Shown here: piece after piece, positions 3,155-48,215 of the stretch
Position numbering within the stretch: the first letter of the stretch is position 1
How the letters are laid out: each line of letters opens with the position of its first letter
NCBI GenBank assembly: GCA_963668185.1
Contig: OY764162.1
Coordinates: 916,754 to 980,753, forward strand
Source: Dehalococcoidia bacterium
Lineage (GTDB): Bacteria; Chloroflexota; Dehalococcoidia; Lucifugimonadales; G963668185
Reading direction: 5' to 3'
DNA: 64,000 nucleotides
Translations under genes and position numbers: made by a program
The notes under the pieces: model-generated
Database searches by the model: none
Told to the model about the DNA's origin: nothing
Seen by the model: the letters and a program-made list of their open reading frames with translations, nothing else

Positions 3155-4285
3155 TGTACTCGTTCAGTACATATGGGACAGTTTTGGCGAGACCATGTCC
3201 GGGTGGTGATGCTGAAGATACTCGGCCGGAGTGCGCCCGTCCAGTGAGTGGTGTGGGCGGACAGTGTCGTATAGGCGCTCCCATTCCAGAAGCGCTCTGT
3301 TGAGTGGCGCCATCTCGAGGTCGCCGTCATACAGTTCGTAGAACTCCTCAGTGTGGGTACGCTGCGCCCTCTCTACGTGGCCATTGAGCTTCGGGGATCG
3401 CGGCGGCAACACAAACAGTCTGATCCCGTAGTCCCGGCACGCTGCCTCGAACTCAGCCATGAACTCAGAACCCCCATCGACCTGCACCGCCTTGATCGGA
3501 AACGGAAAGCGCCGACGCATTGAGTCCAGGAACCGCGCCGCCAACGTCGACGTGGCTCGCGTGTGTACCTCGATCACGTCCCACCGCGACACCACATCCC
3601 TCGCAGTGAAGTGCTTGAGCACCATACCCGGAAGGGGGCGGACATCCAGCGTGTCCACCTGCACTATGTCGCCCGGATTGACGGCCTGGTACTCCCTGGG
3701 CTTGCGCACCGCATAGGGACGGGCACGGGCGCGCTTACGCGCCGCTACACCCTGTCGCGGAGGTTCCTTGAGTACGCCGCGAACCTTCAGACTGGCCAGG
3801 ATGCGGCCCACCATCGAAGTGGACACCTGCCAGCCCTCTCGCCTCAGCATCACCACCAACTTGTCCTTGCCCCAGCATGGATACCGCTCCCTCATCTCCA
3901 TCACCGCCTCGGCCAACTCCACGCTCCACGTAGGACCGCGTACCCTGTGAGGACGACGGCTCTTGGCACACAGGCCGGCCGGTCCCTCTTCCCTCAGCGC
4001 CCTGTCCCACCTGTACAGCGTCGAGCGGGCCATGCCCAATGCTTCAGCCGCTTCGGAGCCGGACAGTCCCCGCCGTCTCAGCGCCTGCCAGCAGTTCACC
4101 ATGCGCAATCGCTCCTGCGCTTCGGCAGGCAGGTCTGTCAGTGTAGCCTTGGCAAGCTGGTAGAATGGCTTGGGTAGACCTACTACCCGCATACAGGGAC
4201 CTCCTTGGTTTGTCTCACCCAAAGGATGGTCCCTTTCTCTTTCCCTTACAACTCCCCCTGTCTCACATCTATCTGAACGAGTTCA
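3155..4285 (-). mobile_element. IS481-family insertion sequence (about 1.13 kb)
   Basis: Single transposase ORF flanked by imperfect ~27-bp inverted repeats. Left is TGTACTCGTTCAGTACATATGGGACAG (3155-3181). The reverse complement of 4259-4285 is TGAACTCGTTCAGATAGATGTGAGACA. The 5'-TG(T/A) terminus is typical of IS481. Confidence 0.7.
3164..4222 (-). CDS. IS481-family DDE transposase (HTH + rve integrase core)
   Basis: 352 aa. N-terminal HTH 'MARSTLYRW'. Integrase core 'VQVDT...', 'VQVDGGSEF' and 'PPRSPKLNGHVERAQRT' (DDE with the family-typical spacing). Confidence 0.85.
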   Translation of the reverse strand: MGETNQGGPCMRVVGLPKPFYQLAKATLTDLPAEAQERLRMVNCWQALRRRGLSGSEAAEALGMARSTLYRWDRALREEGPAGLCAKSRRPHRVRGPTWSVELAEAVMEMRERYPCWGKDKLVVMLRREGWQVSTSMVGRILASLKVRGVLKEPPRQGVAARKRARARPYAVRKPREYQAVNPGDIVQVDTLDVRPLPGMVLKHFTARDVVSRWDVIEVHTRATSTLAARFLDSMRRRFPFPIKAVQVDGGSEFMAEFEAACRDYGIRLFVLPPRSPKLNGHVERAQRTHTEEFYELYDGDLEMAPLNRALLEWERLYDTVRPHHSLDGRTPAEYLQHHHPDMVSPKLSHMY

Positions 4286-4376
4286 TAGGACGCAATGTTA
4301 TGCGTGGGACGCGCCGTCAGCAGATTGTACTCGTTCAGCAATACGGAGGCACTACCCACACTTAAGGAACCCCTAT

Positions 4377-4943
4377 TCACCCGTTCGCCAGAGGGAGATA
4401 TGCCAGCCTGTCATACACTGCCCCGCCCTGAGACAGAGTGCTGCGCATCAGGCTCAAGCCCTCGACTGCAAAGCGCCCCTCCTCTTCGGAAGCGATGCAA
4501 CGCACGTGGTCCAGCGCTGCCCGCACTGTCGAGGCCGGCGCATTTGCTCTGAACCTCGCAACGGTGACGTGCGGCCTGAATCGAGGGCGCATGTCTTTGG
4601 GGAATCCTGCCTGCTCCATCGACCTCTCAACAGCGTCACGCAGCAACTGAAGCGCTTCGATTTCGCCGTCCAGGCCGACCCAAAGCACGCGCGGCCTCCT
4701 CTTCCCCGGATACACGCCGCCGCCAACCGCGTGCAGCCGTATGTGTGAGAACCCTTCGCCGGCATGAGAGAGCGCGATTGTCGCATCGGAAGCAGCACGG
4801 TCCGGCATCTCGCCCAGAAACTTGACCGTGAGATGCAGCCTATCCGGGTGCACGGGCCTCAGTCCCGGCAACGAAGCGTCAAGCAGCGGCGCCATCCTTC
4901 GAGCGAGGAAACTCCGGACCTTCTCCGGGAGCTCAATCGCCAC
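4377..4943 (-). CDS. thpR: RNA 2',3'-cyclic phosphodiesterase (2H phosphoesterase, LigT/ThpR)
   Basis: 188 aa with the two HxT motifs 'HLTVKF' and 'HVTVAR' at the expected spacing. Confidence 0.85.
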   Translation of the reverse strand: MAIELPEKVRSFLARRMAPLLDASLPGLRPVHPDRLHLTVKFLGEMPDRAASDATIALSHAGEGFSHIRLHAVGGGVYPGKRRPRVLWVGLDGEIEALQLLRDAVERSMEQAGFPKDMRPRFRPHVTVARFRANAPASTVRAALDHVRCIASEEEGRFAVEGLSLMRSTLSQGGAVYDRLAYLPLANG

Positions 4944-4951
4944 AAAGGCTC

Positions 4952-5497
4952 TCAGGACTCTTTCCCCGACTTCTTGAGGTCTTCAGAAAGGCGTTTGAGA
5001 CGAATGAACCAGCCTGTGATGTCTTCCAGGGAGTAAGCGGCGTTTGCCGGGCTGGGGCTCGGCGCCAGGAAGACCCGCGATTCGAGTATCCGCCAGCACT
5101 GCAGGCCAAGCGTTACTTTTGTGCGCTCCGCGCGAGCGTACCTCGCGTAGTTCCTGCACGCCACCACGCCCAGGAAACAGACGATCGCCGGGCCGAATCT
5201 TACGATCTTGTCTGTGAACGGCGCGACAGACCGGCGAAAGTCGGACGCGGTCAAGCCAGACACGCCACGCGAAGGACGCTTAACCAGGTCCGTCAGTCCG
5301 ATCCCGTGCCGCAACACCCGCTCGTCAGTTTGCGCTGTCAGATCTTCGTTCACCAGGCCACTTTCGTTGAGCGCCGGCCAGAACCGGTTTCGCGGCGATG
5401 CGAAGTAGTGTCCGGCCTTCACAGAGCTCAGCCCAGGGTTGATTCCCACGAACAGGATGTCCAGTCCGGGCTGCAGGTAGTCAGGGAGAGTCTTCAC
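4952..5497 (-). CDS. mug: G/U mismatch-specific uracil-DNA glycosylase (UDG family 2, Mug-like)
   Basis: 181 aa. 'ILFVGINPGLSS...GHYFASPRNRFW' matches the Mug/TDG active-site motif GINPG. Confidence 0.8.
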   Translation of the reverse strand: MKTLPDYLQPGLDILFVGINPGLSSVKAGHYFASPRNRFWPALNESGLVNEDLTAQTDERVLRHGIGLTDLVKRPSRGVSGLTASDFRRSVAPFTDKIVRFGPAIVCFLGVVACRNYARYARAERTKVTLGLQCWRILESRVFLAPSPSPANAAYSLEDITGWFIRLKRLSEDLKKSGKES

Positions 5498-5537
5498 CTG
5501 GTTGCCGCCGAGGGTATGGGCCTGCCTTGCAGGTCTG

Positions 5538-8500
5538 CTATCTTCCCGCCAGGTAATCGGCCATGGGCTTCACGTTGTAGCTGGTCGCCGCATCGGTCAG
5601 CGCCTCCACTGCCGCCCGCGCCGTATCCGGTGACGTGAAGCAGGGGATGCGACGCTCCACGGCCGCCCTGCGAATATGGAAACCGTCCTGCAACGTCTCG
5701 CGGTCGCCGGTCACCGTGTTCACCACCGCGGTGACCGTCCCGTCCATGATAATGTCGACCACGTTCGGGTGGCCTTCGTTCAGCTTCTTGGGCACGGAGA
5801 CTATCGGGATCCCAAGTCCTTCGATCATGGCGGCCGTTCCCTCAGTGGCATAGAGACTGTACCCCGCATCTGCGAGGCCTCGAATGAGGGGAAGGGACGC
5901 CGCCTTGTCGCGGTCGGCAATGCTGAGCAGCACGGAGCCCTCCTCCGGCAGCATCATGTCCGCCGCCATGAACGCCTTTGTCGCTGCTGGGCCGAACTCG
6001 TAGTCAACGCCCATCGCCTCGCCCGTTGACTTCATCTCCGGGCCGAGGTAGGTGTCCACACCCGTCAGTTTGGACATGGAGAACACAGGGGCCTTCACCC
6101 CGACCAGCTTCCGGCGCTTCCACAGGCCGCCCTCGTATCCCTGCTCGCGCAGGCTGTGGCCAAGCATGGCGTTGATCGCCAGCCTGACCATCGGCACGCC
6201 GGTGAGCTTCGAGATGAAGGGGATCGTCCTGCTGGCCCGTGGGTTGACCTCGATGATGTAAACGCTGGCCGGCTGGCCGTCCGCCCGTAAGCGTTCGTCA
6301 TTCGGGCTTCGATACGAGTCTCCGCCGACAAGGACGAACTGGATGTTCATCAGGCCGTGCACGTCTAACCCCAGCCCTATGCGAGTGGTATAGTCGACGA
6401 TCGTGTCCACTTCTTCCGGCGTCAGAGTGAGGCCGGGATATATCGCCATCGAGTCTCCGCTGTGGACGCCCGCGCGCTCCACGTGCTCCATGATCCCCGG
6501 GATGAGGACCGCCTCCCCGTCGCACACCGCGTCGACCTCCACCTCGCGCCCTTCGAAGTACTTGTCGATCAGCACCCTCCGGCCTCCTCCGGCCTCGAAC
6601 GCCCCGGACATGTACTTCACCAACTCGGTAGCATTCTGCACGATCTCCATGGCCCGGCCACCAAGAACATAGCTCGGCCTAACCAGAATTGGATAACCGA
6701 CCTCCTGTGCCACGTTGAGCGCCTGCTCCAGGTTCGACACCGCCGCACCGGGCGGGTTTGGGATGCCCACACGCGCCAGGAACTCCTCAAAAAGATGCCT
6801 GTCCGAGGCCATGTCGATCGTACGCGCGGATGACCCCAAAATCGGCAACCCGGCAGAATCCAACGACTGGGACAGGTTGATCGCCGTCTGCCCTCCGAAC
6901 TGCACGATTGAAGGCGGCACGGCCAGGTCGTCCCCGGACTCTGCGACTGCCTCGTTCTCCAGGATGTCCCGCACACTCTCTTCGTCCAGCGGCTCGAAGT
7001 AGAGCCGGTCGCTCGTATCGAAGTCGGTCGACACCGTCTCGGGGTTGGAGTTGACGACAACGCTCCCCAAGCCTGCGTCTCTGAGCGCCCAAGCGGCGTG
7101 CACGGAACTGTAGTCGAACTCGATGCCCTGGCCGATTCTTATCGGACCGCTGCCCACGACCACCGCCTTCTGGCCCGGCATCGGCGCTGCCTCGTTCTCT
7201 TGCTCGTACGCGCTGTAGTAGTACGGCGTCTGAGCCTCGAACTCCGCCGCGCACGTGTCCACCATCTTGTACACGGGCCGGATTCCCCACCTGCCGCGCA
7301 GCTTCCTTACCTCATCCTTCGTCCGGTCGGTAAGCAGCGCCACCTTCTCGTCCGAGAAACCGAGCCGCTTTGCTTCCAACAGGGTTCCTTCATCGAGAGT
7401 CCCGGTGATGAGCCGCTGTTCCATGTCCGTAATGTTCTTGAACGCGTACGTGAACCACGGGTCAATGCCGGTAAGGCGCGACATCTCCTCCGGCGACGCT
7501 CCTTGGCGCAGTCCGGACATTACGGCCCACAGCCGCTCGTCATGAGAGTCGAGCGGCAGGCCTGACAGAGAGGCGCCGTTCCTCCAGGCCGGTTCCTCCC
7601 ACAGGATCGATCTGTTCGTGATCTCAAGCGACCGCACCGCCTTCTGAAACGCCGCCTCGAACGTACGCCCTATGGCCATGACCTCGCCCGTGGCCTTCAT
7701 CTGCGTGCCGAGCGACCGGTCCCCGCTGGGGAACTTGTCGAACGGCCAGCGCGGGATCTTGACGACGCAGTAGTCAAGCGCGGGCTCGAACGAGGCCACA
7801 GTCTTTTGGGTTACCGCGTTCGGAATATCGTCGAGTCGCCGGCCGGCCGCGATCTTCGCCGCAACTCGCGCAATCGGGTAGCCGGTGGCCTTGCTCGCCA
7901 GCGCCGAACTTCGACTCACCCTGGGATTGACCTCGATCACGTAGTAGGAGCTGTCCGCCTCGCTGCCCGGAAGCGTGTCCCCCACGATCCGGTTCGGCTC
8001 CAGCGCGAACTGGATGTTGCAGCCGCCCTCAATCCTGAGGGCGCGGATGATACGCAGGCTGGCCGACCTGAGCATCTGGTACTCCTTGTCGGAAAGCGTC
8101 TGGCTGGGCGCCACCACAATGCTGTCCCCCGTATGCGTCCCCATCGGGTCGATGTTTTCCATGTTGCAGACCGTGATGCAGTTGTCCGCGCCGTCCCGCA
8201 TCACTTCGTACTCGAGCTCCTTCCACCCCACAAGCGACTTCTCGATCAGCGCCTGGCTGATCGGGCTGGCCGCCAGCCCGCCCGACACGATCGCCTCGAA
8301 CTCCTCCTCTGTGGACGCGATGCCGCCGCCTGTGCCTCCCAGCGTGTACGCCGGCCGCACGACCAGTGGTAGCCCCAGCCGTTCGAGCGTATCTCTTGCC
8401 TCCTCCATTGAGTGCACGGTGGCGCTCGGCGGTACGGGTTCTCCCAAGTCAAGCAGCAGTTGCCTGAACAGGTCTCTGTCTTCGGCCTGCTTGATCGTCT

Positions 8501-8855
8501 CCAGCCGTGTACCCAGTAGGCGGACGCCGTACCTGTCGAGGACGCCCGCTTCCGCAAGCTCCACCGCAAGGTTGAGGCCGGTCTGGCCGCCCAGGGTAGG
8601 CAGCAGGCCGTCCGGCTCCTCAGCCTGGATGACCCGCTCCAGCACTGCGGCGCTGAGCGGCTCTATGTACACCACGTCGGCGATGCCCTCGTCCGTCATG
8701 ATCGTGGCCGGGTTGGAGTTGACGAGCACCGTTGTGACGCCCTCTTCCCGGAGCGACTTGCAAGCCTGCGTGCCGGCGTAGTCGAACTCGGCCGCCTGCC
8801 CGATCACAATCGGCCCAGACCCGATCACAAGGACTTTGGAGGGCTTGGAAATCAC
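5538..8855 (-). CDS. carB: Carbamoyl-phosphate synthase large subunit
   Basis: Unmistakable CarB sequence with two ATP-grasp halves ('[21 protein letters not shown]', '[19 protein letters not shown]') and an MGS-like C-terminus. The start is set at GTG 8855 ('[14 protein letters not shown]'), which overlaps the upstream stop as GTGA. The track's 8921 start adds a basic non-homologous leader. Confidence 0.95.
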
Positions 8856-9076
8856 TGCTTCGTTACTTCCTCGATTTCTACGGTGATCTTTACGCCCTTT
8901 AGGTCGTAACCTTCCGACCATACTTCGTCAGCGCCTATCAACTCGTAAATCAGATCCTTGATCGACCGCATCGGATTGTCTCTACTGACCTCATCTTCAC
9001 TGCCGTTCCAGAGAATCACTCCTCTGTTCATTGGCCTAGCGCATCCGTTCTCGAACTCGTACTTTCTTAACAGCAT
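8852..9076 (-). CDS. Hypothetical 74-aa protein inserted between carA and carB
   Basis: ATG is preceded by AAGAGGAG at 7-nt spacing. The stop overlaps the carB GTG start (GTGA). Sampled GC is about 48% against much higher flanks. No motif recognised. Confidence 0.6.
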
Positions 9077-9100
9077 CTATCGACTCCTCTTATCTAGCCA

Positions 9101-10204
9101 TCAACCATTCCTCGCCGCCACTATATCCATGAACCTATCGAAGATGTACCCGTTGTCGAGCGGCCCCGGCGACGCCTCCGAGTGGTACTGGATGCTCATG
9201 GCCGGCAGGCTAGTGTGCGCGATGCCCTCCACTGTGCCATCGTTGAGGCTGACGTGGCTCACCACCGCCTCGGCCGGCAGCCCGTCGGGGTCGATCGCGT
9301 AGCCGTGGTTCTGGGCCGTGATGTACACGCGGCCGGTCTCCTCGTCCCGCACCGGGTGGTTGCCGCCCCTGTGACCGAACTTCAGCTTGAACGTGTCCGC
9401 GCCAAGCGCCCGGCCAAGCACCTGGTGGCCAAGGCAGATGCCCAGAATCGGAACGCGCCCTAGCAGCGCCCTGGCCGTGGCCACGCTGTAGTCCAGCAAC
9501 TCCGGGTCGCCGGGCCCGGGCGAGAGCACGACCCCGTCCGGGTTGCGCGCCAGTATGTCCGACGCCGACGCCGACGCCGGCATCGCCGCCACCTCGCAGC
9601 CTTTGCCGGCGAGTATGCGCATGATGTTGTACTTCACACCCATGTCCAGCACCAGTATCCGGCGGCCGCTGGCGGCCGGCGCGGCCAACGCGTCCGAGTT
9701 CCAGTCGTACGCCTTCCTCGTGCTCACACTTGAAACGAAGTCCTGGTCGCCGTAGCCTGGCAGCCCGCGCAGCCGTTGGAGCGCGCGTTCCGGCGTCCCC
9801 TCGCGTGTAATGAGACCCATCATCACGCCCCGGCTGCGCAGCCTGCGCGTGATCGCGCGCGTGTCGACGTCTGACAGCCCGGGCACGCCCGCCGCGTCCA
9901 GGTACTCGTGCAGCGTCATGCGCGACGTGTTGTGGCTGGGGCGCAGCGAGTGCTCCCGCACGACGAAGCCGGACACCTGGATTCGTGCGGACTCGTGGTC
10001 CCCGTCGTTGATGCCGTAGTTGCCGATCAGCGGGTACGTGGGCATCACGATCTGCCCTGCGTACGACGGGTCGGTAAGCATCTCCTGGTAGCCCGTCATC
10101 GACGTGTTGAACACCACCTCGCCGTGAGTCTCCACATCCGCGCCGAACGCCCGGCCCCTGTAAACAGAGCCGTCTTCGAGGACCAGGTATGCGGGAGTTG
10201 GCAT
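9101..10204 (-). CDS. carA: Carbamoyl-phosphate synthase small (glutaminase) subunit
   Basis: Typical CarA: 'AYLVLEDGSVYRGRAFGA' at the N-terminus and the GATase triad region 'PILGICLGHQ'. Start set at Met32 of the track ORF. Confidence 0.95.
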   Translation of the reverse strand: MPTPAYLVLEDGSVYRGRAFGADVETHGEVVFNTSMTGYQEMLTDPSYAGQIVMPTYPLIGNYGINDGDHESARIQVSGFVVREHSLRPSHNTSRMTLHEYLDAAGVPGLSDVDTRAITRRLRSRGVMMGLITREGTPERALQRLRGLPGYGDQDFVSSVSTRKAYDWNSDALAAPAASGRRILVLDMGVKYNIMRILAGKGCEVAAMPASASASDILARNPDGVVLSPGPGDPELLDYSVATARALLGRVPILGICLGHQVLGRALGADTFKLKFGHRGGNHPVRDEETGRVYITAQNHGYAIDPDGLPAEAVVSHVSLNDGTVEGIAHTSLPAMSIQYHSEASPGPLDNGYIFDRFMDIVAARNG

Positions 10205-10214
10205 AGTAAGTCTA

Positions 10215-10586
10215 CTAACTTCTGTCGATCGGAAGCGACCGAGTGCGAATGCGGCGGGTGGAAACGCTGACAATCGAACCCGCTTCAAGGTGCCCACTGA
10301 AATTATCTAGAACTTGCCGGAGATATGGGTTAACCACATTGGGCTGCATGTTCCTGAGCCGGAACATTATGACGCTCGGAAACTGTGCGTCCCTTGCGGC
10401 CATCAGTTTGCTAAAATCCAGATCATGCGTCAGCAAGACTCGGTCCTCATCCAGCGCCAACTGTAGTATTTCATGGTCTTCCAACCTCCCGCGGCCCTCT
10501 ACTCCAATGTGAATGGCGTCGTATCCAAGAGTTATAAGGTATTCGACGGTTCTTGGAGAGATTCCCATATCCACCAGGAATCTCAC
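10215..10586 (-). CDS. DUF5615-family PIN-like / Mut7-C-like putative RNase (toxin-like)
   Basis: 123 aa. 'MRFLVDMGISPRTVEYL...GYDAIHI...D.EILQLALDEDRVLLTHDLDF' matches the DUF5615 pattern that pairs with DUF433. It overlaps the upstream gene by 4 nt. Confidence 0.65.
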   Translation of the reverse strand: MRFLVDMGISPRTVEYLITLGYDAIHIGVEGRGRLEDHEILQLALDEDRVLLTHDLDFSKLMAARDAQFPSVIMFRLRNMQPNVVNPYLRQVLDNFSGHLEAGSIVSVSTRRIRTRSLPIDRS

Positions 10587-10825
10587 CCTAAAATCTGCTC
10601 TATCGGGTGCATGCTCTCGTCAGCCAGCCGCGATGCGTACTCAAGAGACTGTTGTATGTCTTCAGATTCGAGATACGGGTACGCATCGATGATCTCTTTC
10701 ACTGACATGCCGTTGGCCACAAGGTTCAGAACGAGTGATACCGTCACGCGCATGCCACGAATGCAAGCACGTCCTTCCATCACGTTGGAGTCGAATGTTA
10801 TTCGGTCTAAATCAGGCATCGGCAT
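10583..10825 (-). CDS. DUF433 domain protein (antitoxin-like partner of DUF5615)
   Basis: 'RITFDSNVMEGRACIRGMRVTVSLVLNLVANGMSVKEIIDAYPYLESEDIQQSLEYA' is the classic DUF433 pattern. Start set at Met9 of the track ORF, just after the upstream stop. Confidence 0.65.
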   Translation of the reverse strand: MPMPDLDRITFDSNVMEGRACIRGMRVTVSLVLNLVANGMSVKEIIDAYPYLESEDIQQSLEYASRLADESMHPIEQILG

Positions 10826-10832
10826 CCTCTTG

Positions 10833-11045
10833 TCATCGCAGGGTTTCATTCAAACGCAACTCTTTCTTCGCCTCATCCCATGAGATGTAACCCTCGCGTG
10901 ATTCTCTGACGCGGTCGATCTCCTCCAGATCCTGCAAGTCTCCGATCAACTCCGTCCACGAGTCGTAATCCAACAGCACTGCCTTCTTCTTTCCAGAAGA
11001 GTCCACGAGGATTCGCGCACGTTCGATCAAATCACCTGTTTGCAC
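10833..11045 (-). CDS. Small Phd/YefM- or RelB-like antitoxin-type protein (tentative)
   Basis: GTG at 11045 lies 2 nt after the upstream TAG. 'KKKAVLLDYDSWTELIGDLQDLEEIDRVRESRE..ISWDEAKKEL' resembles antitoxin C-terminal halves. The longer track ORF overlaps the preceding gene. Confidence 0.4.
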   Translation of the reverse strand: MQTGDLIERARILVDSSGKKKAVLLDYDSWTELIGDLQDLEEIDRVRESREGYISWDEAKKELRLNETLR

Positions 11046-11047
11046 TG

Positions 11048-12481
11048 CTATGCGCCTCCAACCGTCTCCCGGCTTTCTTGCCGAGCCGCATATACAGTCT
11101 GCAACAGTTCGGTTAGCGCCTCTTTGTGAGTTTCCCATTCGTCACGGCTGAACGCGAACTGTATCTCAGCGCGTGCATCTGTCAAAGGCTCAAGGTTATG
11201 CGGCCAAGTTGTGTGCCTGATTTTCTCTGTCATGGGACGGAACTTATCGCGACACAGGTTGGCCGAGGCTGGATAGAATACTATTCCTATGCCCTCGTCC
11301 CACAGGCCAATTCGAGCATGCGGCGTCAGTTCAGGCCCGGTTCGGGCCGCTATATCAACTCCAAGCCTGTGCAGTACATTGATCGAATCGGGCCAGTTAT
11401 CTCGAAACAGCTTCAATGCATCGCGCGCCAAGTCACTCGCGCCGTTATCGTTGATGCTGTTTTCGATGTACGCTTGGTGAATGGTTCGCACCAGTTTGGC
11501 CAGGGCCTCTTCGTGAGTCGTCCACTTTTCCGCATTTACTCTGAAGATGATCTCTGTTCTGGGATCTTCCAATGGCTCACGTCCCTCCGGCCACAATACG
11601 TATGGAATCTCCTTTAATGGCTTTCTGAACTCATCCAAGCACAACGCCTTGGCCGCTGGAAAGAAAACTATCTCTATTCCCTCGTTCTTGACGCCAATAC
11701 GCGCATATGCCTCTCTCCTTCCCACGATTGGGATGTTGAGCCCGAAAGCTCCTGGACGTGGTCGAGACGTGGGCCAGTTCTCTTGAAACATCTCCCTTGC
11801 TGCTTCAAATAGGTCAGACACACCTGATTCTTCTATTCTGCGCTCCAACTGTATTCTCCGCTCCTCCACGCTAACACGCCGTCTTCGCGAGCGGCGTTCG
11901 GGTTCGGCTGCTGCCTCCACTTCCACTTGCTTGGCCAGGAACGTCTTGCCGTCATAGACGAACCCGTGAAACGTTAGCAGCGAGACCTCCATACCGCTGT
12001 TCTCGGCTAAGAACCTCACCATCCGTTCCGTCCTGTCATCGACGCCCAGCCCAACTAGAAACAGCCGCAGTGGTTTAAGCGACTCCAGCGCTCCATGTCT
12101 GCCGTACCATTCTTCGAAGTCCTCGACTTCTTCGATTCCGTGGGCACCCCCTGAGCGGTCTGAAATGTGAGTTGCAAGTTCGCCCAGTTCCATGCCGTCT
12201 AGGTAAGAGGCGTAGTCGATGATCTGCGCCACCGCCTCCCGCGATAGTGTGCCGCGCTTGAGTTCGAATACGCACAGCCGCCCGTCTTCGTCCACGCCGA
12301 GCAGGTCGAGCGGGCCGCCCTCCGTCGGCGTCTGCCGGCCCACGAGCGTTAGACCCCCGAGCAGCAAGCCGGGATTCTTCGCAAGGACGTTCTCCAGCAA
12401 CTCCTCGGACTCCATTCGATCGGACGTCTGTAGCTGCGTTACGTCTTCGCCGTCAATCTGCCACAGCTTGATAGATTCCAA
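11048..12481 (-). CDS. NucS/DUF91-like PD-(D/E)xK nuclease domain protein with two tandem DUF4268-like C-terminal repeats
   Basis: N-terminal 'GLTLVGRQTPTEGGPLDLLGVDEDGRLCVFELKRG...AVAQIIDYASYL' carries a D..E.K motif. Residues 222-337 and 349-466 are clear internal repeats ('SDLFEAAREMFQENWP' / 'SDLARDALKLFRDNWP'). Confidence 0.6.
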   Translation of the reverse strand: MESIKLWQIDGEDVTQLQTSDRMESEELLENVLAKNPGLLLGGLTLVGRQTPTEGGPLDLLGVDEDGRLCVFELKRGTLSREAVAQIIDYASYLDGMELGELATHISDRSGGAHGIEEVEDFEEWYGRHGALESLKPLRLFLVGLGVDDRTERMVRFLAENSGMEVSLLTFHGFVYDGKTFLAKQVEVEAAAEPERRSRRRRVSVEERRIQLERRIEESGVSDLFEAAREMFQENWPTSRPRPGAFGLNIPIVGRREAYARIGVKNEGIEIVFFPAAKALCLDEFRKPLKEIPYVLWPEGREPLEDPRTEIIFRVNAEKWTTHEEALAKLVRTIHQAYIENSINDNGASDLARDALKLFRDNWPDSINVLHRLGVDIAARTGPELTPHARIGLWDEGIGIVFYPASANLCRDKFRPMTEKIRHTTWPHNLEPLTDARAEIQFAFSRDEWETHKEALTELLQTVYAARQESRETVGGA

Positions 12482-12490
12482 GCTAGCCCC

Positions 12491-12688
12491 CTATCCAGTG
12501 ACCGCATACTCTAGGGTTCTGGGATTGGAGATTCGTCTCGATGCGTCCAGTATCTCCATTCCGACGACGTTCCCGTGATCATCGTAGTCGATGATGACTC
12601 CGGGCTTCTCCTCGTCGCTCTCTTCAATATCGGCATCGTTGAGGAGAATTCTTAGAATGTCCACTTCTTGGTCGTATATCACTTTCAC
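12491..12688 (-). CDS. DUF2283 domain protein
   Basis: GTG start with GGAG 7 nt upstream gives 'VKVIYDQEVDILRILL...GVIIDYDDHGNVVGMEILDASRR', the typical DUF2283 pattern. The longer track ORF (to 12916) overlaps pyrC. Confidence 0.6.
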   Translation of the reverse strand: MKVIYDQEVDILRILLNDADIEESDEEKPGVIIDYDDHGNVVGMEILDASRRISNPRTLEYAVTG

Positions 12689-12731
12689 GATCTTCTCCAG
12701 CGTGCTTCCAATCCCGGCCTGAAGTTCAATT

Positions 12732-14078
12732 CTACTCCACGCCCCCATACACAACCTTGCCCCCGAACACCGTCGCGACCACGCGCCCCCTGAGCGTCGC
12801 GCCCTCCAGCGGCGTGTTCTTGCCCTTGGACGCGAACTCGGCCGTGTCCACCGTCCACTCCAGGCCGGGGTTGAAGACGACAACGTCAGCGGGCGCGCCC
12901 GGGCGCAGCGTCCCAAGCTCGCGGCCCAGGAACTGAGCGGGCGCGCTTGTGAGCTTCTCGATCAAGAGCGGCAGTCCCACGTCGCCTGAGTGCGCCAGCG
13001 ACATCAGCGAACCGAGCGCCGTCTCCAGCACGCTGATGCCGAACGCCGCCTCGTCCACCGTCGTCATCTTGTCGATCGCGTTGTGCGGCGCGTGGTCGGT
13101 GGCAATGAAGTCGATCGTGCCGTCCTTGAGTCCCCCGATCAGCGCCTCCACGGCGCTCGGGCTGCGTAGCGGCGGGTTGACCTTCGCGTTCGGGTCGTAC
13201 GCCTGCCGGGTCAGCGGCGCGTATCGTGAGCCTTCCGCCGTCATGCCCATGACCGCCTCGTCCGTCAGCGTAAGGTGGTGCGGCGTGACCTCGCACGTCA
13301 CGTTGAGCCCGCGGTCCTTCGCCCTCGCGACGTGCTCCAGCGACTGGACCGTGCTCACGTGCGCCACGTGCAGCCTGCCGCCGGTCAACTCGGCCAGCGC
13401 GATGTCTCTGGCAACCATCACGTCCTCCGCCGATCCGGGCACGCCCTTGACGCCGAGCCGGTTCGACACCCATCCCTCGTTGATCGAGCCTCCTTTCGAA
13501 AGCTCGTGCACCTCGCAGTGATTGATGATCGGCAGGCCCAACGCGGAACTGTAGCTGAGCGCTTGCCGCATGAGGTTGGAGTCCGACACCGGCATCCCGT
13601 CGTCGCTGAAGCCGATCGCGCCCGCTTCCGCCAACTCGGCCATCTCGGCGAGTTCGTCTCCCTTGCCGCCCGCCGTGACGTTGCCGATGGGCAGCACCCG
13701 CACCGCGCCCTCCGCCGACGCACGGTCCAGCACGAACTCTATCGCGGCCCGCGAGTCCAGAGGCGGGTTCGTGTTCGGCATGGCGCACACCGTCGTGAAC
13801 CCGCCGCGCGCCGCGGCCCGCGTGCCGGTCGCGATCGTCTCCTTGTACTCGAACCCCGGCTCCCGCAGGTGGCAGTGCACGTCCACGAATCCCGGACAGA
13901 CGATCATGCCGTTCGCGTCCAGCGCCCTAACCCCCGCGTCCGCGGGCAGATTTCCGCCGACGGCGCTTACCAGGCCATCCTCGAGCAGCACGTCCGCCAC
14001 GCCGTCGATGCCCTGCGACGGGTCCACGACCCTGCCGCCCCGGATAAGCACGGGCGCAATCCCCGCTGTGTGTCTCAT
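12732..14078 (-). CDS. pyrC: Dihydroorotase
   Basis: 448 aa. 'PGFVDVHCHLREPG' metal-binding motif and 'DHAPH'. The start overlaps the pyrB stop by 4 nt. Confidence 0.9.
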   Translation of the reverse strand: MRHTAGIAPVLIRGGRVVDPSQGIDGVADVLLEDGLVSAVGGNLPADAGVRALDANGMIVCPGFVDVHCHLREPGFEYKETIATGTRAAARGGFTTVCAMPNTNPPLDSRAAIEFVLDRASAEGAVRVLPIGNVTAGGKGDELAEMAELAEAGAIGFSDDGMPVSDSNLMRQALSYSSALGLPIINHCEVHELSKGGSINEGWVSNRLGVKGVPGSAEDVMVARDIALAELTGGRLHVAHVSTVQSLEHVARAKDRGLNVTCEVTPHHLTLTDEAVMGMTAEGSRYAPLTRQAYDPNAKVNPPLRSPSAVEALIGGLKDGTIDFIATDHAPHNAIDKMTTVDEAAFGISVLETALGSLMSLAHSGDVGLPLLIEKLTSAPAQFLGRELGTLRPGAPADVVVFNPGLEWTVDTAEFASKGKNTPLEGATLRGRVVATVFGGKVVYGGVE

Positions 14079-15100
14079 TCTCCGTCCTCCGAGCGGCGCC
14101 TCGGCGCGGCAAGCGCGGTCAGCACCGCCATACGCACCGATACTCCGTTGGTGACCTGCTCCTCGATCACCGATCTCACGCCGTGCGCCACCTCCGGGTC
14201 TATCTCGACGCCCTCGTTCATCGGCCCCGGGTGCATCACCAGCGCGTCCGGCTTGGCCGCCTCCAGCCGCCTCGCGTTGATCCCGTACCGTTGGGAGTAC
14301 TCGCGCAGGCTCGGCAGGTGCCCCGCCTCCTGGCGCTCACGCTGTAGCCGCAGCGCCATCACGATGTCGGCGCCTTCCAGCGCGCGCTCCAGGTCCGTCT
14401 CCACGGTTATGGAGGCAAACGGATGGTCTTCCGTTCGCAGGCGTTCACGGTTGAAGTCCACAGGCAGCAGCGTCGGCGGCGCGCACAGAACGACCTCCGC
14501 GCCCATCTTCGTGAGGCCCCACATGTTGGACCTCGCCACCCGGCTGTAGTTGATGTCTCCCACGATCACCGCCTTCAACCCTTCGATCCGTCCAAAGCGC
14601 CTGCGAATCGTGTAAAGGTCCAGCAGCGCCTGCGTCGGGTGGGCATGTGCGCCGTCGCCCGCGTTCACGATAGCCGCATCGAGGTGACGCGCCAGCAGGT
14701 ACGGCGCTCCCGCGTGCGGATGACGGATCACGATCACATCCGCCCTCATCGCCTGGAGCGTCAGCGCGGTGTTGTACAGCGACTCCCCCTTCTCCATGCT
14801 CGTACCGTTGCCGGAGAGATTGATCACGTCCGCGCTCAGTATCTTGCCCGCCTGCTCGAAAGAGACGCGCGTCCTCGTGCTGGCCTCCACGAACAGCGTG
14901 AGAACGCTCTTCCCGCGAAGAGTCGGCACCTTCTTGATGTCCCTGTTCAGCACCTCTGACATGGCCTCGGCGTTGTCCAGGACCTCTTCGATTTCGCTCC
15001 GTGTGTAGTCGTCCAGATCCAGGACGTGCCTGCGAGGCGCTGGTCGGGTGCGGGCGATGTTCGTTCGGGACTTCGTTGCCGCGCTGGCAGTGAGCGTCAC
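14075..15100 (-). CDS. pyrB: Aspartate carbamoyltransferase catalytic subunit
   Basis: Canonical motifs '[11 protein letters not shown]', '[10 protein letters not shown]' and 'HPGPMNEG'. The start overlaps the pyrR stop by 4 nt. Confidence 0.95.
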
Positions 15101-15648
15101 TTTGCCCTCCTTGTCACCAGGTCCACGCGGTCGAAGCCGTCCGTCTCCTCCACGCGCACGTCAACCTCTTCGTCGGCGCGCGTCGGGATGTTCTTGCCCA
15201 CGTAGTCCGGCCTGATCGGAAGCTCTCGGTGTCCGCGGTCCACCAGTACCGCCAGCCTGATCTCGCTGGGCCGGCCGAAGTCCATCAGCGCGTCCATCGC
15301 CGCGCGGATCGACCTCCCCGTGTAAAGGACGTCGTCCACGAGCACGATCCGCTTGCCGTCGATGCCAACCGGAATGTCGGTGGGCCTGACAACCGGACGC
15401 GCGCCGGAAGCGATGTCGTCTCTATACAGGCCGATGTCCAGCGAGCCGACGGGCGGGTAGGTTCGCTCGAATTCGCCGATGATATGCGAAATCCGTTCGG
15501 CCAGCGGGACGCCTCGCGTGTGCATCCCCACGAGGACGAGGCCGTCCACGCCGCTGTTTCGCTCCACGATCTCATGAGAGATTCTGACCAGCGAGCGGCG
15601 CATGTCCTCGGTCGTGAGGACCACCCTGTCAGTGGTCATTCCCGGCAT
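15097..15648 (-). CDS. pyrR: Bifunctional pyr operon regulator / uracil phosphoribosyltransferase
   Basis: '[14 protein letters not shown]...[14 protein letters not shown]' and the PRPP motif '[17 protein letters not shown]'. Start set at Met57 of the track ORF (Met60 is also possible). The upstream part of the track ORF is the leader RNA. Confidence 0.9.
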
Positions 15649-15650
15649 GT

Positions 15651-15816
15651 CGCGTTCGGAACTGGCAGCAAAACAAAACCCCCTGCCTTCGCTGGCAAGG
15701 GGCTTAACGCTTCTCCGCGCGGCTTTCAGCGCCGCCGCCGTCTCGGCTGCCCGCCCTTGCCAGCCTCTCAGGACTGAATTAAAGGAACGCCGAAACGAAT
15801 CTATGCTCTCTGGCAA
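15651..15816 (-). promoter_or_regulatory. PyrR-dependent transcription attenuator (pyr leader)
   Basis: Minus-strand AGUCCUGAGAGGCU (plus 15762-15775) matches the PyrR binding-loop consensus ARUCCAGAGAGGYU with one mismatch. A second CCAGAGAG core lies at plus 15805-15814. It is followed by a terminator hairpin. Confidence 0.65.
15670..15702 (-). terminator. Intrinsic terminator of the pyr attenuator
   Basis: Minus strand reads CCCCTTGCC-agcgaa-GGCAGGGG followed by TTTTGTTTT, located 20-50 nt upstream of the pyrR start. Confidence 0.6.
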
Positions 15817-15864
15817 ACATCATAGCCGATCCAGACGTCGCCCTTCAACCGAACCGCCGTCAGG

Positions 15865-15988
15865 GTAACTGTTCACACTCCGTGAGAGACTATGTACTCC
15901 TCTTGCCTCTTCCCCAGTCTGCTGGGGAAGATTGAGATGGGGTAAGAGCGGCGATTGCTGGGCCGCCTCATCAGCACTGAACACTTAC
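15865..15988. mobile_element. MITE-like element, copy 1 (carries a family-C hairpin cttccccagtctgctggggaag)
   Basis: Ends are GTAACTGTTCAC... and ...CTGAACACTTAC, which form terminal inverted repeats. It shares ends and subterminal sequence with the copies at 20335-20448 and 37731-37844. Confidence 0.55.
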
Positions 15989-16003
15989 GCCTTCAATCAT
16001 CAG

Positions 16004-16222
16004 TGGACATCTGCGAACTAGAGTGCTATTCTCATCGCGTGGACATCATGACAGTCGCTCAGGAGCCGCTCCGCAGCCGGTCGTCGATGGGACATTTTGG
16101 GGACATTTCTGAGTCATTTCAGAGTCACGATGGGACACGCCAGCTACGGCGGATGGGGCGGCTCTGGGACATCGGCGAAGCTTCTCAGCTTTGGCATGTC
16201 CCGAAATGCCCCAGAATGTCCC
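16004..16222. repeat. Phased array of the heptamer (T)GGGACAT and its inverted form ATGTCCC
   Basis: Forward copies at 16004, 16040 (TGGACAT), 16089, 16100 (GGGACAT), 16111, 16122 (GAGTCAT/C), 16132 (GGGACAC) and 16166 (GGGACAT). Inverted copies at 16196 (ATGTCCC), 16206 (ATGCCCC) and 16216 (ATGTCCC). Central spacing is 11,11,11,10 nt and the inverted copies are 10 nt apart. The array ends 24 nt before the SD of the next gene. Confidence 0.7.
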
Positions 16223-16259
16223 ACATTTTTTTAGGATAGGCCGGAAGGAGGAGCAGTCC

Positions 16260-17309
16260 TTGGATTTTGATCCGACAGTGAGAACGGCGATCATCGGTTG
16301 CGGAGGTCTGGCGCGCAACCGGGTCAGGGAGATTCTGGCCGGCTTTCGCAATACGCACATCCCCGTGGTGTGCGAGCCGTCCGACGAGGCCTTCGAGCGG
16401 ATGGCGACGCTGTTCGAGGAGTCTGGCCGAGCAGTGCCGGTCAACGTGCCGGACCTGTCCACAATGCTCGATCAGCATGTGGACAGGCTCGATGCGGCGT
16501 ATGTGGTCACTCCCCACGCCCTGCACTTCAGCCAGGCCGACGCATGCCTGAAGGCAGGGCTTGACGTCCTAGTCGAGAAGCCGATGGTGATGAACGCGGA
16601 GGAGGCGAGGAAGCTCATCGAGACTCGCGACAGCACAGGGCGCATGCTGACGGTAGCGTTTCAGGGGAGCCTGCTTCCACATGTCCGCAAGGCGGCGGAG
16701 ATGCTTCGCTCAGGCGAACTGGGCGAAGTCCAGAGCATTTCGGGCGTCATCTGGCAAAACTGGGTTGGGCTGGCAGCGGACTCATGGCGCATGAGGCCGG
16801 AGCTCTCAGGCGGCGGGTTTGTGTTCGACAGCGGGGCCCACATGCTGAACACCGTGTCCGACCTCGCCGGAGAGGACTTCGCAGACGTCTGGGCGCTGCT
16901 GGACTACCAGGGCGGCCCGGTTGAGATCAACGCGGTCATAATGGGCAGGCTGCGGTCCGGAGTGCTGGTGACAATCCACGCCTGCGGCAATACGGCGAAG
17001 TCGTGCGCGTCCGATATTCGCGTGTTCTGCTCGAAGGCGGCGCTCAGGACAGGCGCGTGGGGCGAATCGCTGGAGATACTGCGACAACAACCGGAAGACT
17101 GGCATCTCAAGGGACAGCGGCGGGACCAGGGATGGGAGCGGGTGGAAGTGCGTGACTCACGCGGCGTCTGGGAGGAGTTCCTGTCCGCCCGCGAAGGCGT
17201 GATCGTCAACCCGTCCCCGCCTGAGCTTGGCCTGAGGATGGCCATTCTCTGGGACGCGATCAGAGAGTCTGCAAGTCAGGACGGTACGCCCGTCCGTCTG
17301 AAAACCTGA
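16260..17309 (+). CDS. Gfo/Idh/MocA-family NAD(P)-dependent oxidoreductase
   Basis: TTG start at 16260 with GGAGGAG 7 nt upstream. Rossmann N-terminus '[13 protein letters not shown]' and 'VLVEKPM'. The track's ATG at 16191 lies inside the heptamer array. Confidence 0.8.
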
Positions 17310-17343
17310 GCGCGAGTACAATATCGGAACGTCAGGAGCAGTT

Positions 17344-18093
17344 ATGAGCCAGCTTCCCAGAGTGACCGTTTGGAATGAGAACCGGCATGAGAAGGAGGAC
17401 GCGGACGTCATCGCGGTCTACCCCGACGGCATGCACGCTCCAATTGCCAGGCATCTTGGAGACCGGGGATTTTCAGTGAAGGTGGCGACGCTGGACGAAC
17501 CGGAGCACGGTCTCACGGAAGAAGTGCTCGCAGAGACTGACGTGTTGACCTGGTGGGGGCACAAGGCCCACCGGGAGGTAAATGACGAAATCGTGGAGCG
17601 CGTGTACCAGCGCGTCCTGGACGGGATGGGACTCGTGCCGCTGCACTCAAGCCATTTCTCCAAGATCTTCAAGAAGCTGATGGGAACCAGCTGCGGGCTT
17701 TACGTCCGTGAGATTGGCGAAAAGGAACGCGTCTGGGTCGTTAATCCGGGCCATCCGATCGCCAAGGGGCTTGGAGAGTATTTCGAAATCCCTCATACGG
17801 AGATGTACGGTGAGCCGTTCGACATACCTGAGCCGGACTCGCTCGTCTTCGTGAGTTGGTTCGCCGGGGGCGAGGTGTTCCGTAGCGGGTGCTGCTACAA
17901 GAGAGGGCGCGGGAAGGTGTTTTACTTCAAGCCGGGTCACGAGACGTACCCGATCTTCTACCAGACCGAGGTGCTTCGCGTGATCGAGAACGCGGTCCTG
18001 TGGGCCGCGCCGGATGACGGCATCGACGACCGGCCGGACCGCACGACGGCCAGGGGGATTCACCGCTACGATCCCCTCGAAGACATTCGCTAG
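17344..18093 (+). CDS. ThuA-domain (trehalose-utilisation-like) protein
   Basis: 249 aa. '[10 protein letters not shown]...YPDGMH..IA..L', '[11 protein letters not shown]' and '[10 protein letters not shown]' are typical of ThuA-like class-I glutamine-amidotransferase-fold proteins. Confidence 0.75.
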
Positions 18094-18143
18094 AACTGAG
18101 GCAACGAGGCCGGACTTACTTGCAGACGGACGAGGAACACTGA

Positions 18144-19301
18144 ATGGACAGGAAGCTGAAGATGGGAATGGTGGGCGGCGGGCGGGACGCGTTCATCGGC
18201 CCGGTCCACCGCATGGCGGCGCAGCTTGACAACAGGATCGAACTGGTCTGCGGCGCGTTCAGCAGCGCTCCGGAGAAGTCGAGACTGAGCGGCAGAGACC
18301 TGTACCTGCACCCGGACCGGGTGTACGGACACTACGATGAGATGTTTCGCGGCGAGTCCGCCCTGCCCGACGGCGAGCGGATGGACTTCGTCGCCATCGT
18401 TACGCCCAACGACGTCCACTACCCTGTCGCGCTCGCCGCTCTCGACGCTGGGTTCCACGTAGTCTGCGACAAGCCGATGACAACGACGCTGGACGAGGCG
18501 AGAGAACTGGAGCGCAGGGTGGGAGAAGCAGGAAAGCTCTTCTGCCTCACGCACAACTACACCGGCTATCCGATGGTGAAGGAGGCGCGCGACTTTGCGA
18601 AAGGCGGAGAGCTTGGCGCCATCCGTCGGATTGTCGTTGAGTACCCGCAGGGCTGGCTCGCCACGAGGCTGGAGACCGAGGGCATGAAGCAGGCCGAGTG
18701 GCGAACCGACCCTGCCCGGGCCGGCGCTTCATCGTGCATGGGGGATATCGGCACGCACTGCGAGAACCTGGCGGAGTACGTCGCCGGCCTCCGCATCACA
18801 GAGATGTGCGCCGACCTGACAACGTTCGTGGAGGGCCGCGAACTCGATGACGACGGCAGCGTCCTGCTTAGATTCGAACGCGGCGCGCGCGGCGTGTTGT
18901 GGGCCAGCCAGGTCGCGGTGGGAGAGGAAAACGGCCTGCGGTTGCGGATATACGGCGAAACGGGCGGGATAGAGTGGCGGCAGCTTGAGCCGAACACGCT
19001 TGTCGTCCACAGGCCGGACGGCCCCACGGAGATCAGGCGCACCGCCACCCCGTTTGTTGGGGCGGCGGCGTCCGGCAGCGTCCGATTGCCGGCAGGCCAT
19101 CCCGAGGGCTTCATCGAGGCGTTCGCGAACATCTACAACGCCTTCGCGGACGCGCTGACCGATGTGCTGGGAGGAAAAGAGGTGGACGAAGATGAGTACG
19201 ATTATCCCAACGTGCGCGACGGCGTCCGCGGCATGGCGTTCCTGGATGCGGTTGTGCGAAGCGGCGAAAGCGACGAAAAGTGGGTGCGGCTTCCGCAGTA
19301 G
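18144..19301 (+). CDS. Gfo/Idh/MocA-family oxidoreductase
   Basis: 'LKMGMVGGGRDAFIGPVH', 'HVVCDKPM' and 'CLTHNYTGYPM' match the large-type Gfo/Idh/MocA pattern. Confidence 0.8.
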   Translation: MDRKLKMGMVGGGRDAFIGPVHRMAAQLDNRIELVCGAFSSAPEKSRLSGRDLYLHPDRVYGHYDEMFRGESALPDGERMDFVAIVTPNDVHYPVALAALDAGFHVVCDKPMTTTLDEARELERRVGEAGKLFCLTHNYTGYPMVKEARDFAKGGELGAIRRIVVEYPQGWLATRLETEGMKQAEWRTDPARAGASSCMGDIGTHCENLAEYVAGLRITEMCADLTTFVEGRELDDDGSVLLRFERGARGVLWASQVAVGEENGLRLRIYGETGGIEWRQLEPNTLVVHRPDGPTEIRRTATPFVGAAASGSVRLPAGHPEGFIEAFANIYNAFADALTDVLGGKEVDEDEYDYPNVRDGVRGMAFLDAVVRSGESDEKWVRLPQ

Positions 19302-19328
19302 CGGGGCCGAAGAACCACAAGGAGGAAG

Positions 19329-26770: not shown

Positions 26771-26960
26771 CGTATGACAGTCTCGATGGCTGAGGCCTAA
26801 CGTTAGTGCCGGGGACAGACCATGTACAAGGTTATTTAGGCCCCAACTCATCGAATTAACGAGATGGTGGGATGTCTTCTGCAGCCAGGTCTCGCATGCA
26901 TGATCGCAGGTAGCCTTGTTGCCATGATGGCCATACCCTCAAGGACGTAGAGCGCTTCGG

Positions 26961-30712: not shown

Positions 30713-30860
30713 CGGTCACTCCGTTCCCCGCAGTATCAACGAGCCGAATGTAAACATCATACTGCATGACTTCACGCAATTTTACCGCCGGCCTGAGAAT
30801 TACTGTAGGAACCATGGTTCAGGCAGATGCAAATCCAAAAGAAGTGAGAGGTGAAGCGAG

Positions 30861-31025
30861 ATGATCAACACAATTCTGGGCCGGCTGCCGGTGAGACTGA
30901 ACTCGGACTTCGAGTACTACCTGAGGAACCTGGAACGCAGGAGCGCCCATGGCCTGCCGTCCATCCAGGAAGCCAGGAGGGACTACCGGGCCGCCGTGCG
31001 GTCCAGGCACCCGTTCATACCGTAG
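30861..31025 (+). CDS. Hypothetical 54-aa protein divergent from the LysR gene (not in the ORF track, below its size cutoff)
   Basis: ATG is preceded by GAGAGGTG at 7-nt spacing, codons are GC3-rich, and a strong hairpin terminator follows. Translation: MINTILGRLPVRLNSDFEYYLRNLERRSAHGLPSIQEARRDYRAAVRSRHPFIP. Confidence 0.45.
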   Translation: MINTILGRLPVRLNSDFEYYLRNLERRSAHGLPSIQEARRDYRAAVRSRHPFIP

Positions 31026-48205: not shown

Positions 48206-48215
48206 CTTGGAACTA

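Follow-up and report, generated by a model that had tools for sequence, protein, structure and literature searches.

A junction in the pyrimidine operon of uncultured Dehalococcoidia as a probable long-standing sink for toxin-antitoxin and nuclease genes

How do five accessory genes, among them a predicted toxin and a nuclease, come to lie inside an operon for pyrimidine synthesis? The question is raised by a 64,000-nt stretch of a Dehalococcoidia genome (GenBank assembly GCA_963668185.1, contig OY764162.1, positions 916,754 to 980,753), which we refer to as the window. An original prediction, made from the sequence alone, had placed five genes between pyrC and carA at 10215-12730 on the minus strand, and the map of open reading frames (ORFs) bears this out; in order, they encode a DUF2283 protein, a NucS-like PD-(D/E)xK nuclease, a Phd-like small protein, DUF433 and the PIN-like DUF5615. 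The same prediction regarded them as a single cassette that had been inserted into the operon. We find instead that the segment is pieced together from at least three modules that are independent of each other, namely the DUF2283 gene, the nuclease gene, and the Phd-like gene with the DUF433-DUF5615 pair, and on balance we consider it probable that the 2.5 kb between pyrC and carA are a long-standing sink within the operon for selfish and defence-type genes rather than a discrete mobile cassette.

We compared the junction with that of 14 related loci (L001-L010, L126 and L163-L165; L-numbers denote related loci throughout), the closest genomes being uncultured Dehalococcoidia with a PyrC identity of at most 69%. 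A NucS-like gene lies between pyrC and carA in 12 of the 14 (L001, L004-L010, L126 and L163-L165), alongside variable subsets, in variable order, of DUF2283, DUF4258, Phd-like, ParE, MazF, RHH, DUF433 and DUF5615 genes. The window holds the fullest version of the junction, and the membership and order of the modules differ in every relative, which speaks against a single five-gene unit. In contrast, the gap between pyrC and carA measures only 4-153 nt in approximately 25 distant Dehalococcoidia and Chloroflexota loci (PyrC identity of at most 58%, plus L014), in agreement with the expectation that the two genes are normally contiguous. Because the loci of the clade are occupied while the distant loci have pyrC and carA adjacent, the occupation of the junction appears to go back to a single invasion in a clade ancestor.

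The DNA of the segment is 66-75% identical to that of the relatives, compared to 68-73% for pyrC and carA, and colinear alignments that span pyrC, the DUF2283 gene and the NucS-like gene extend over 2402 nt with L164 (70.8% identity) and over 2044 nt with L007 (68.6% identity). The flanks of L165, which is the nearest of the relatives seen, share 84-90% DNA identity with the window. Additionally, the identity of the NucS-like protein correlates with that of PyrC and CarA (r ~0.6), with the divergence of the NucS-like protein being several-fold higher. By these comparisons, segment and operon have diverged in step. A search for direct or inverted repeats at the flanks yielded none beyond the internal duplication of the nuclease gene, no integrase or tRNA marking a mobile element was detected, and a scan of viral contigs found no relatives.

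The nuclease gene is not found at the junction in the two remaining loci. In L003 the junction holds instead a 314-aa protein (11375-12319) with a weak nucleoside 2-deoxyribosyltransferase-like match of 22.9 bits, below the gathering threshold (GA). In L002 pyrC is followed by an unannotated 215-aa protein and then by a transposase-like gene, and the 10 kb retrieved beyond pyrC do not include carA.

Upon extending the comparison to the other junctions of the operon, we observe a NUDIX hydrolase gene between pyrB and pyrC in L001, L003-L006, L008-L010, L163 and L164, sometimes with another DUF433-DUF5615 pair, and a HAD hydrolase gene between carA and carB in L001, L003, L005, L008, L163 and L164, often with VapB-VapC. 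The carA-carB junction of the clade also carries homologues of orf74, a short low-GC gene that the window has at the same place, and an MNT-HEPN pair in L010. The window itself lacks the NUDIX, HAD and VapBC genes and keeps orf74. It thus appears that the whole operon is loaded in this clade and not the pyrC-carA junction alone. The NUDIX and HAD genes may have joined the pyr operon as functional members and not as selfish genes. Literature searches returned nothing relevant on toxin-antitoxin (TA) genes in pyr operons or in operons of Dehalococcoidia.

Next, we examined the small genes of the segment. Pfam confirmed the presence of TA-type genes together with a nuclease-domain protein; among the domains named in the original prediction, DUF2283, NucS_C, DUF433 and DUF5615 were recovered by hidden Markov model searches, and Phd and DUF4268 were not. 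The DUF2283 protein is 89% identical to that of L005, whose gene comes after a DUF4258 gene (Pfam 27.7 bits, GA 25), and we read the copy in the window as an orphan, the antitoxin-like remnant of a DUF4258-DUF2283 pair. In L165 its slot is taken by a different antitoxin-PIN pair. The strong conservation of DUF2283 (77-89% at the amino acid level) was considered as a sign of recent transfer and rejected, since its DNA identity is no higher than that of the flanks.

For the Phd-like protein, the PhdYeFM profile reached 16.8-18.1 bits against a GA of 29.8, so the assignment is not confirmed by sequence, and a profile search of the PDB with 13 Phd-like homologues returned no solved Phd/YefM structure. 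Its homologues are followed by ParE in L004, by MazF in L009 and by PIN in L165, a gene context that supports its candidacy as an antitoxin. The DUF433-DUF5615 pair has the layout of a type II TA module, consisting of adjacent small genes that overlap, with the antitoxin upstream and both products above GA, from which we infer that it is probably a functional TA pair in the window. The DUF5615 protein also has weak Pfam matches to Mut7-C (22.8 bits) and PIN_10 (18.4 bits); its acidic residues D6, D37, D54 and D56, candidates for the active site of a PIN-like fold, are present in the L005 and L008 paralogues, as judged by eye, and a sequence search of the PDB found no solved homologue. PIN-COG2442 (DUF433) pairs have been predicted as type II TA systems that are particularly common in Chloroflexi and cyanobacteria (Makarova et al. 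2009, PMC2701414), and such pairs have been catalogued in the order antitoxin to toxin in Synechocystis (PMC4963859).

The toxin of this pair has been lost repeatedly. Orthologues of the DUF433 protein of the window, 70-96% identical, are found in L001, L008, L010, L163 and L165, and beside them the DUF5615 gene is fragmented in L001 and absent in L163, L008 and L010. In L165 (2898-2975) 11 codons from its start and 13 from its end persist as an in-frame relic immediately ahead of carA, and the retained 3' end may carry the translation-initiation context of carA. Among the loci that keep this DUF433, the window alone has an intact DUF5615 toxin. These patterns point to TA modules that erode where they stand.

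The largest gene of the segment belongs to a family with 1,562 scored homologues at E <= 1e-5, most of approximately 350 aa. In an alignment of 48 homologues, W7, D59, E73, K75, Q86 and Y90 are invariant. Publicly, the start of the gene (12413-12481) is annotated at Met23 (P0001, 455 aa); since W7 is invariant in all 48 homologues and a GGGGG motif lies upstream, the TTG at 12481 is in all probability the true start. The AlphaFold2 model (pLDDT 83.6) places the PD-(D/E)xK domain at the N-terminus, and its top Foldseek matches in the PDB are EndoMS/NucS 5gkj and 2vld (E = 7e-6 to 2e-4). Pfam matches NucS_C alone, with the NucS_N domain being absent, and the NCBIfam NucS equivalogs reach 46.7 bits for NF003270 (cut-off 216) and 28.7 bits for NF002876 (cut-off 252). 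Because NucS_N is missing and the equivalog scores are far below their cut-offs, the protein is not a NucS orthologue.

A match was also obtained with a phage defence protein. The PADLOC model for the candidate single-gene defence family PDC-S11 (PDLC04916) scored 114 bits (E = 1.5e-33) over residues 4-200, which correspond to profile positions 5-196 of 358, and ten homologues match the same part of the profile. According to a 2026 preprint (bioRxiv 10.64898/2026.09.05.749240), the PDC-S11 protein from E. coli ECOR34, now called Madara, restricts T-even phages modified with glucosyl-hydroxymethylcytosine (glucosyl-hmC), consists of a NucS-like nuclease and an EVE-like C-terminal domain, lies beside a BREX locus, and loses restriction when its nuclease carries the mutation D63A.

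The C-terminal part of the window protein is of another kind. Two DUF4268-like repeats had been predicted here; the internal duplication was confirmed, with residues 205-345 and 346-477 being 41% identical and 30 nt recurring in the DNA at a distance of 381 nt, whereas the family was not, as DUF4268 (PF14088) matches neither repeat at E <= 10 and no precomputed PF14088 match occurs among the 120 homologues listed. The model of the domain (pLDDT 92.2) is an alpha+beta sandwich with a weak likeness to YdhG/DUF1801 and YjbR/DUF419 (E >= 5e-3, TM 0.5-0.58). By sequence the domain is rare, with 58 clusters among 1.84 billion representatives, and it is always C-terminal in proteins of approximately 350 aa. 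It also varies more than the nuclease domain, the mean pairwise identities being 0.52 and 0.72, respectively; between the window and L165, the nuclease domains are 80% identical and the repeats 30% and 53%. An independent duplication of the domain is present in P0037.

Outside the clade, this family has other surroundings. The nuclease gene lies in the pyr operon in one of 80 metagenome loci, and that locus belongs to the clade; in the L002 genome it sits away from the pyr operon. Neighbours of the homologues outside the clade include BREX PglZ-BrxL (L104), a Type I restriction endonuclease (L108), an MmeI-type IIG enzyme (L091) and HmaC (L154). In L104 (2421-9107) the homologue is immediately downstream of PglZ and BrxL, mirroring the BREX-Madara arrangement of E. 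coli ECOR34. Architecture, relatives and context fit a stand-alone restriction-like nuclease whose specificity would be set by the C-terminal domain. A role of the segment in defence or addiction, as first proposed, is plausible.

An alternative is that the nuclease is a housekeeping enzyme linked to pyrimidine metabolism, an endonuclease acting on uracil, mismatches or damaged DNA, or a protein of nucleotide salvage, with only the small TA genes being selfish and with the NUDIX, HAD and orf74 genes of the relatives having similar roles. Its retention in 12 of the 14 loci, with a divergence that broadly follows that of the operon, would fit such a role, as would the NUDIX and HAD neighbours at pyrB-pyrC and carA-carB, the fold being closest to the mismatch endonuclease EndoMS/NucS, and the presence of a UDG-superfamily gene after carB in the window. 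However, the family is not a resident of pyr operons beyond the clade and lies elsewhere in L002, several homologues adjoin restriction-modification, BREX or Hma systems, the N-terminal NucS domain is missing and the equivalog scores are low, a C-terminal domain that is hypervariable and has been duplicated more than once is unusual for a housekeeping enzyme, and the UDG gene is in no relative's locus. We therefore regard this alternative as unlikely.

The layout of the operon bears on how the five genes may be expressed (Table 1). The spacers from pyrC to carA measure, in order, 43, 9, 2, 7, -4 and 10 nt, so that the predicted tight packing, with gaps of 2-10 nt or overlaps, holds everywhere except for the first spacer. 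The GTG start of DUF5615 overlaps the stop of DUF433 (GTGA), and carA starts 10 nt past the DUF5615 stop, with no obvious Shine-Dalgarno sequence.

Table 1. Genes, protein domains and control elements of the pyr operon in the window, listed in the direction of transcription
Feature	Coordinates	Strand	Evidence and remarks
PyrR-binding attenuator	15789..15669	-	Rfam RF00515 51.4 bits (GA 54), E = 9.9e-5, model 1-115 of 115
Terminator-like hairpin in PyrR attenuator	15705..15676	-	Terminator scan
pyrR	15648..15097	-	ATG start; NCBIfam PyrR equivalog 235 bits
pyrB (aspartate carbamoyltransferase)	15100..14075	-	ORF; tblastn orthologues in 80/80 loci; GTG start; 4-nt overlap with pyrC
pyrC (dihydroorotase)	14078..12732	-	Pfam Amidohydro_1 and DHOase
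DUF2283 gene, 65 aa	12688..12491	-	GTG start, GGAG upstream; Pfam DUF2283 66.4 bits (GA 23)
NucS-like PD-(D/E)xK nuclease, 477 aa	12481..11048	-	TTG start; Pfam NucS_C 33.5 bits (GA 24), residues 26-94
NucS-like nuclease domain, residues 1-190	12481..11912	-	
NucS-like C-terminal alpha+beta domain, repeat 1, residues 205-345	11869..11447	-	
NucS-like C-terminal repeat 2, residues 346-477	11446..11051	-	
Sigma-70-like promoter match TTGACA-16-TACAGT, candidate internal promoter	11185..11158	-	10/12 consensus positions
Phd-like small protein, 70 aa, putative orphan antitoxin	11045..10833	-	GTG start, GGAGG upstream; PhdYeFM below GA
DUF433 (COG2442), predicted antitoxin	10825..10583	-	Pfam DUF433 80.2 bits (GA 23.6)
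DUF5615, PIN-like (Mut7-C type) predicted toxin, 123 aa	10586..10215	-	Pfam DUF5615 78.6 bits (GA 23.8)
carA	10204..9101	-	Pfam CPSase_sm_chain and GATase
orf74, 74 codons, second low-GC insert, between carA and carB	9076..8852	-	Stop overlaps carB GTG start
carB	8855..5538	-	ORF; orthologues 74-78% identical; GTG start

Upstream of pyrR, the window has the leader with a terminator hairpin that, together with the PyrR gene, characterises a PyrR-attenuated pyr operon of the Bacillus type. The element is single, as Rfam found no second PyrR element within 4000-20000, which agrees with the prediction that the segment lies under the PyrR attenuator. At the gathering threshold, Rfam reported no PyrR site in seven relatives; E-value mode recovered the sites, with four relatives having the element at the same position at 42-48 bits. 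No obvious terminator had been predicted in the segment, and the scan found none there, nor any minus-strand terminator-like site from the leader hairpin to one within carB (6101..6088). Since carA and carB follow and neither a terminator-like site nor another attenuator intervenes, the five genes are probably transcribed by read-through on the pyr mRNA and controlled by the one PyrR attenuator. The shared strand and the short spacers add to the anatomical argument for the co-transcription that had been proposed.

The second low-GC gene, orf74 (GC 0.48), has no match in Pfam, NCBIfam or PADLOC. At this junction, homologues with 56-64% identity are present in L001, L005, L007, L008 and L164, usually just upstream of the HAD hydrolase gene. 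Downstream of carB by 40 nt, at 4952-5497 on the minus strand, lies a gene for a DNA glycosylase of the UDG superfamily (Mug-like, with a GINPG motif; Pfam UDG 66.9 bits); a link between the operon and uracil repair through this gene was considered and dropped, since the gene is absent from every relative's locus. We also considered whether the non-ATG starts in the segment (GTG, TTG, GTG, GTG) would damp its translation. This was dropped because pyrB and carB also start with GTG and because most NucS-like orthologues begin with ATG behind a good GGAG.

A promoter scan gave a candidate promoter inside the segment, namely a match towards the 3' end of the NucS-like gene and 113 nt ahead of the start codon of the Phd-like gene. 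Antitoxins typically autoregulate their own operons, and the TA genes could have been exapted as regulators, with an antitoxin-autoregulated internal promoter driving carA and carB independently of PyrR, which would be useful because carAB also serves arginine synthesis. The position of TTGACA-16-TACAGT upstream of the Phd-like gene, the start of carA 10 nt past the toxin stop with no visible Shine-Dalgarno sequence, and the L165 relic, which keeps the last 13 DUF5615 codons right upstream of carA with the rest of the toxin deleted, are consistent with this. However, the match is one of 5 sites that the scan yielded in 12 kb, where 2.1 +/- 1.3 are expected by chance, which makes it weak evidence, its conservation was not supported by any test run, and L007 and L006, which have very different content upstream of carA, manage without the promoter match. 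We consider such an exaptation doubtful, and its probability low.

A further possibility is that the pyr operon serves as a metabolic infection sensor that induces the embedded defence or abortive-infection genes. The dose of the nuclease and of the PIN-like toxin would rise when the pools of UMP and UTP fall, because both genes are downstream of the only PyrR attenuator, and phage replication that drains pyrimidine nucleotides would then trigger the operon. If this were true, the benefit would explain why the nuclease is kept at the junction across a whole Dehalococcoidia clade. We judge this PyrR-gated immunity to be very unlikely.

Finally, we investigated base composition, which had first drawn attention to the segment. 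The hand-counted estimate of approximately 48-55% GC is matched by the measured values: per-gene GC is 0.49-0.56 compared to 0.64-0.69 for the pyr genes, the GC content at third codon positions (GC3) is 0.57-0.63 compared to 0.83-0.90, and in 300-nt windows the segment has a GC of 0.49-0.62 and its flanks 0.62-0.71. The low GC3 is shared by the relatives, with the NucS-like gene at 0.53-0.70 and pyrB, pyrC and carA at 0.73-0.91, and it is low in all 11 genomes measured. Because of this, and since the divergence of the segment equals that of its flanks, AT-richness is a lasting feature of these genes and not the mark of a recent arrival, as the original prediction implied. With respect to the contrary case of an ancestral segment with native composition, the segment is ancestral to the clade, its GC is not native, and deeper relatives lack its genes. 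A recent arrival, by horizontal transfer from a donor richer in AT, of all five genes as one mobile cassette would account for the low GC and GC3 and for the adjacency of pyrC and carA in deeper relatives, but it is extremely improbable given the homologous genes at the same junction in related loci with flank-like divergence and colinear alignments across it, the low GC3 in 11 of 11 genomes, the lack of flanking repeats, integrase, tRNA or viral-contig relatives, and the varying module content.

Elsewhere in the window, a complete Menshen defence system (NsnA/NsnB/NsnC; PADLOC E-values of 7.9e-117, 5.2e-99 and 8.2e-107) lies at 45946-49148 on the plus strand, in the island of lowest GC (minimum 0.455), so that low GC accompanies defence genes elsewhere in this genome too. 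Two further low-GC patches are found at 26200-26950 and 30450-31000 (minimum 0.525-0.53).

In the reading that we favour, that of a sink within the operon, the DUF2283 gene would be left over from a DUF4258-DUF2283 toxin-antitoxin pair, the nuclease would be a DNA-targeting defence enzyme whose specificity is set by a DNA- or ligand-sensing C-terminal domain, and all five genes would be expressed by read-through from a single PyrR-attenuated promoter. A junction between required, co-transcribed genes would be always expressed and would tolerate few deletions, and for this reason the modules would persist and erode in place instead of being excised.

Several points weigh against this reading. 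The protection from deletion is an argument and not a measurement. The PDC-S11 profile is matched in the nuclease half alone, so the specificity and the defence function are extrapolated, and the C-terminal domain, being an alpha+beta sandwich, is not EVE-like as described for Madara, from which it is set apart by description. Defence neighbours (BREX, Type I, Type IIG, Hma) are a raw count of at least 4 among approximately 21 non-pyr loci. Furthermore, the hold of the nuclease on a single junction (12 of 14 loci) is firmer than is usual for defence genes, the low GC3 has been retained through long residence, and the candidate internal promoter leaves room for internal transcription.

If the favoured reading holds, this locus would be a natural example of selfish and defence genes that reside for long inside a biosynthetic operon, filling each of its intergenic junctions and keeping its strand and spacing, with the toxin being lost first, and it would bear on how TA and defence genes find "safe", always-transcribed sites. 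It also indicates that AT-richness is an unreliable clock for recent transfer. Additionally, the analysis defines a family of more than 1,500 homologues that share the nuclease of the recently validated PDC-S11/Madara; the different, fast-evolving and repeatedly duplicated C-terminal domain of this family is a candidate for a new specificity module of a single-protein, restriction-like system.

How does the locus compare with known systems? Like PDC-S11/Madara (PADLOC-DB v2), the window family has an N-terminal NucS-type PD-(D/E)xK domain in which the catalytic D...ExK is kept, in its single-repeat form of approximately 350 aa a linker leads to a C-terminal domain of approximately 140 aa, and the L104 homologue adjoins a BREX locus. 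Unlike it, the window protein leaves the C-terminal half of the profile unmatched, its C-terminal domain is duplicated (477 aa in total) and is modelled as weakly YdhG/YjbR-like instead of EVE-like as described, and its gene, known here from sequence and models, lies inside a biosynthetic operon and not in a defence island. With NucS/EndoMS (2vld, 5gkj) the protein shares the nuclease-domain fold with its catalytic motif and the Pfam NucS_C match, whereas it lacks the N-terminal dimerisation and DNA-binding domain, has the reversed domain order, with the nuclease first, and carries the extra C-terminal domain.

Among the small genes, the DUF433-DUF5615 pair resembles the PIN-COG2442 pairs in the order of antitoxin and toxin, in the 4-nt overlap, in having both Pfam matches above threshold, and in the host phylum, Chloroflexi. 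It differs in that the toxin is of the DUF5615/Mut7-C branch, an extra Phd-like gene stands ahead, and the pair lies inside the pyr operon; no toxicity or neutralisation test of this toxin subfamily was found in the literature. The DUF2283 gene resembles those of DUF4258-DUF2283 pairs, given its 89% identity to the L005 gene that follows DUF4258 at the same junction, and differs in that the window has no DUF4258 partner. As in defence and accessory hotspots between core genes, variable accessory content is found at a fixed position between conserved genes. Here, however, the position lies within one transcription unit, at each of the junctions of pyrR-pyrB-pyrC-carA-carB, the inserts keep the strand and tight spacing of the operon, and, with no sign of integrase-mediated turnover, the occupancy looks old and decays in place. 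The locus combines TA remnants with a PDC-S11-related nuclease whose duplicated C-terminal domain is novel.

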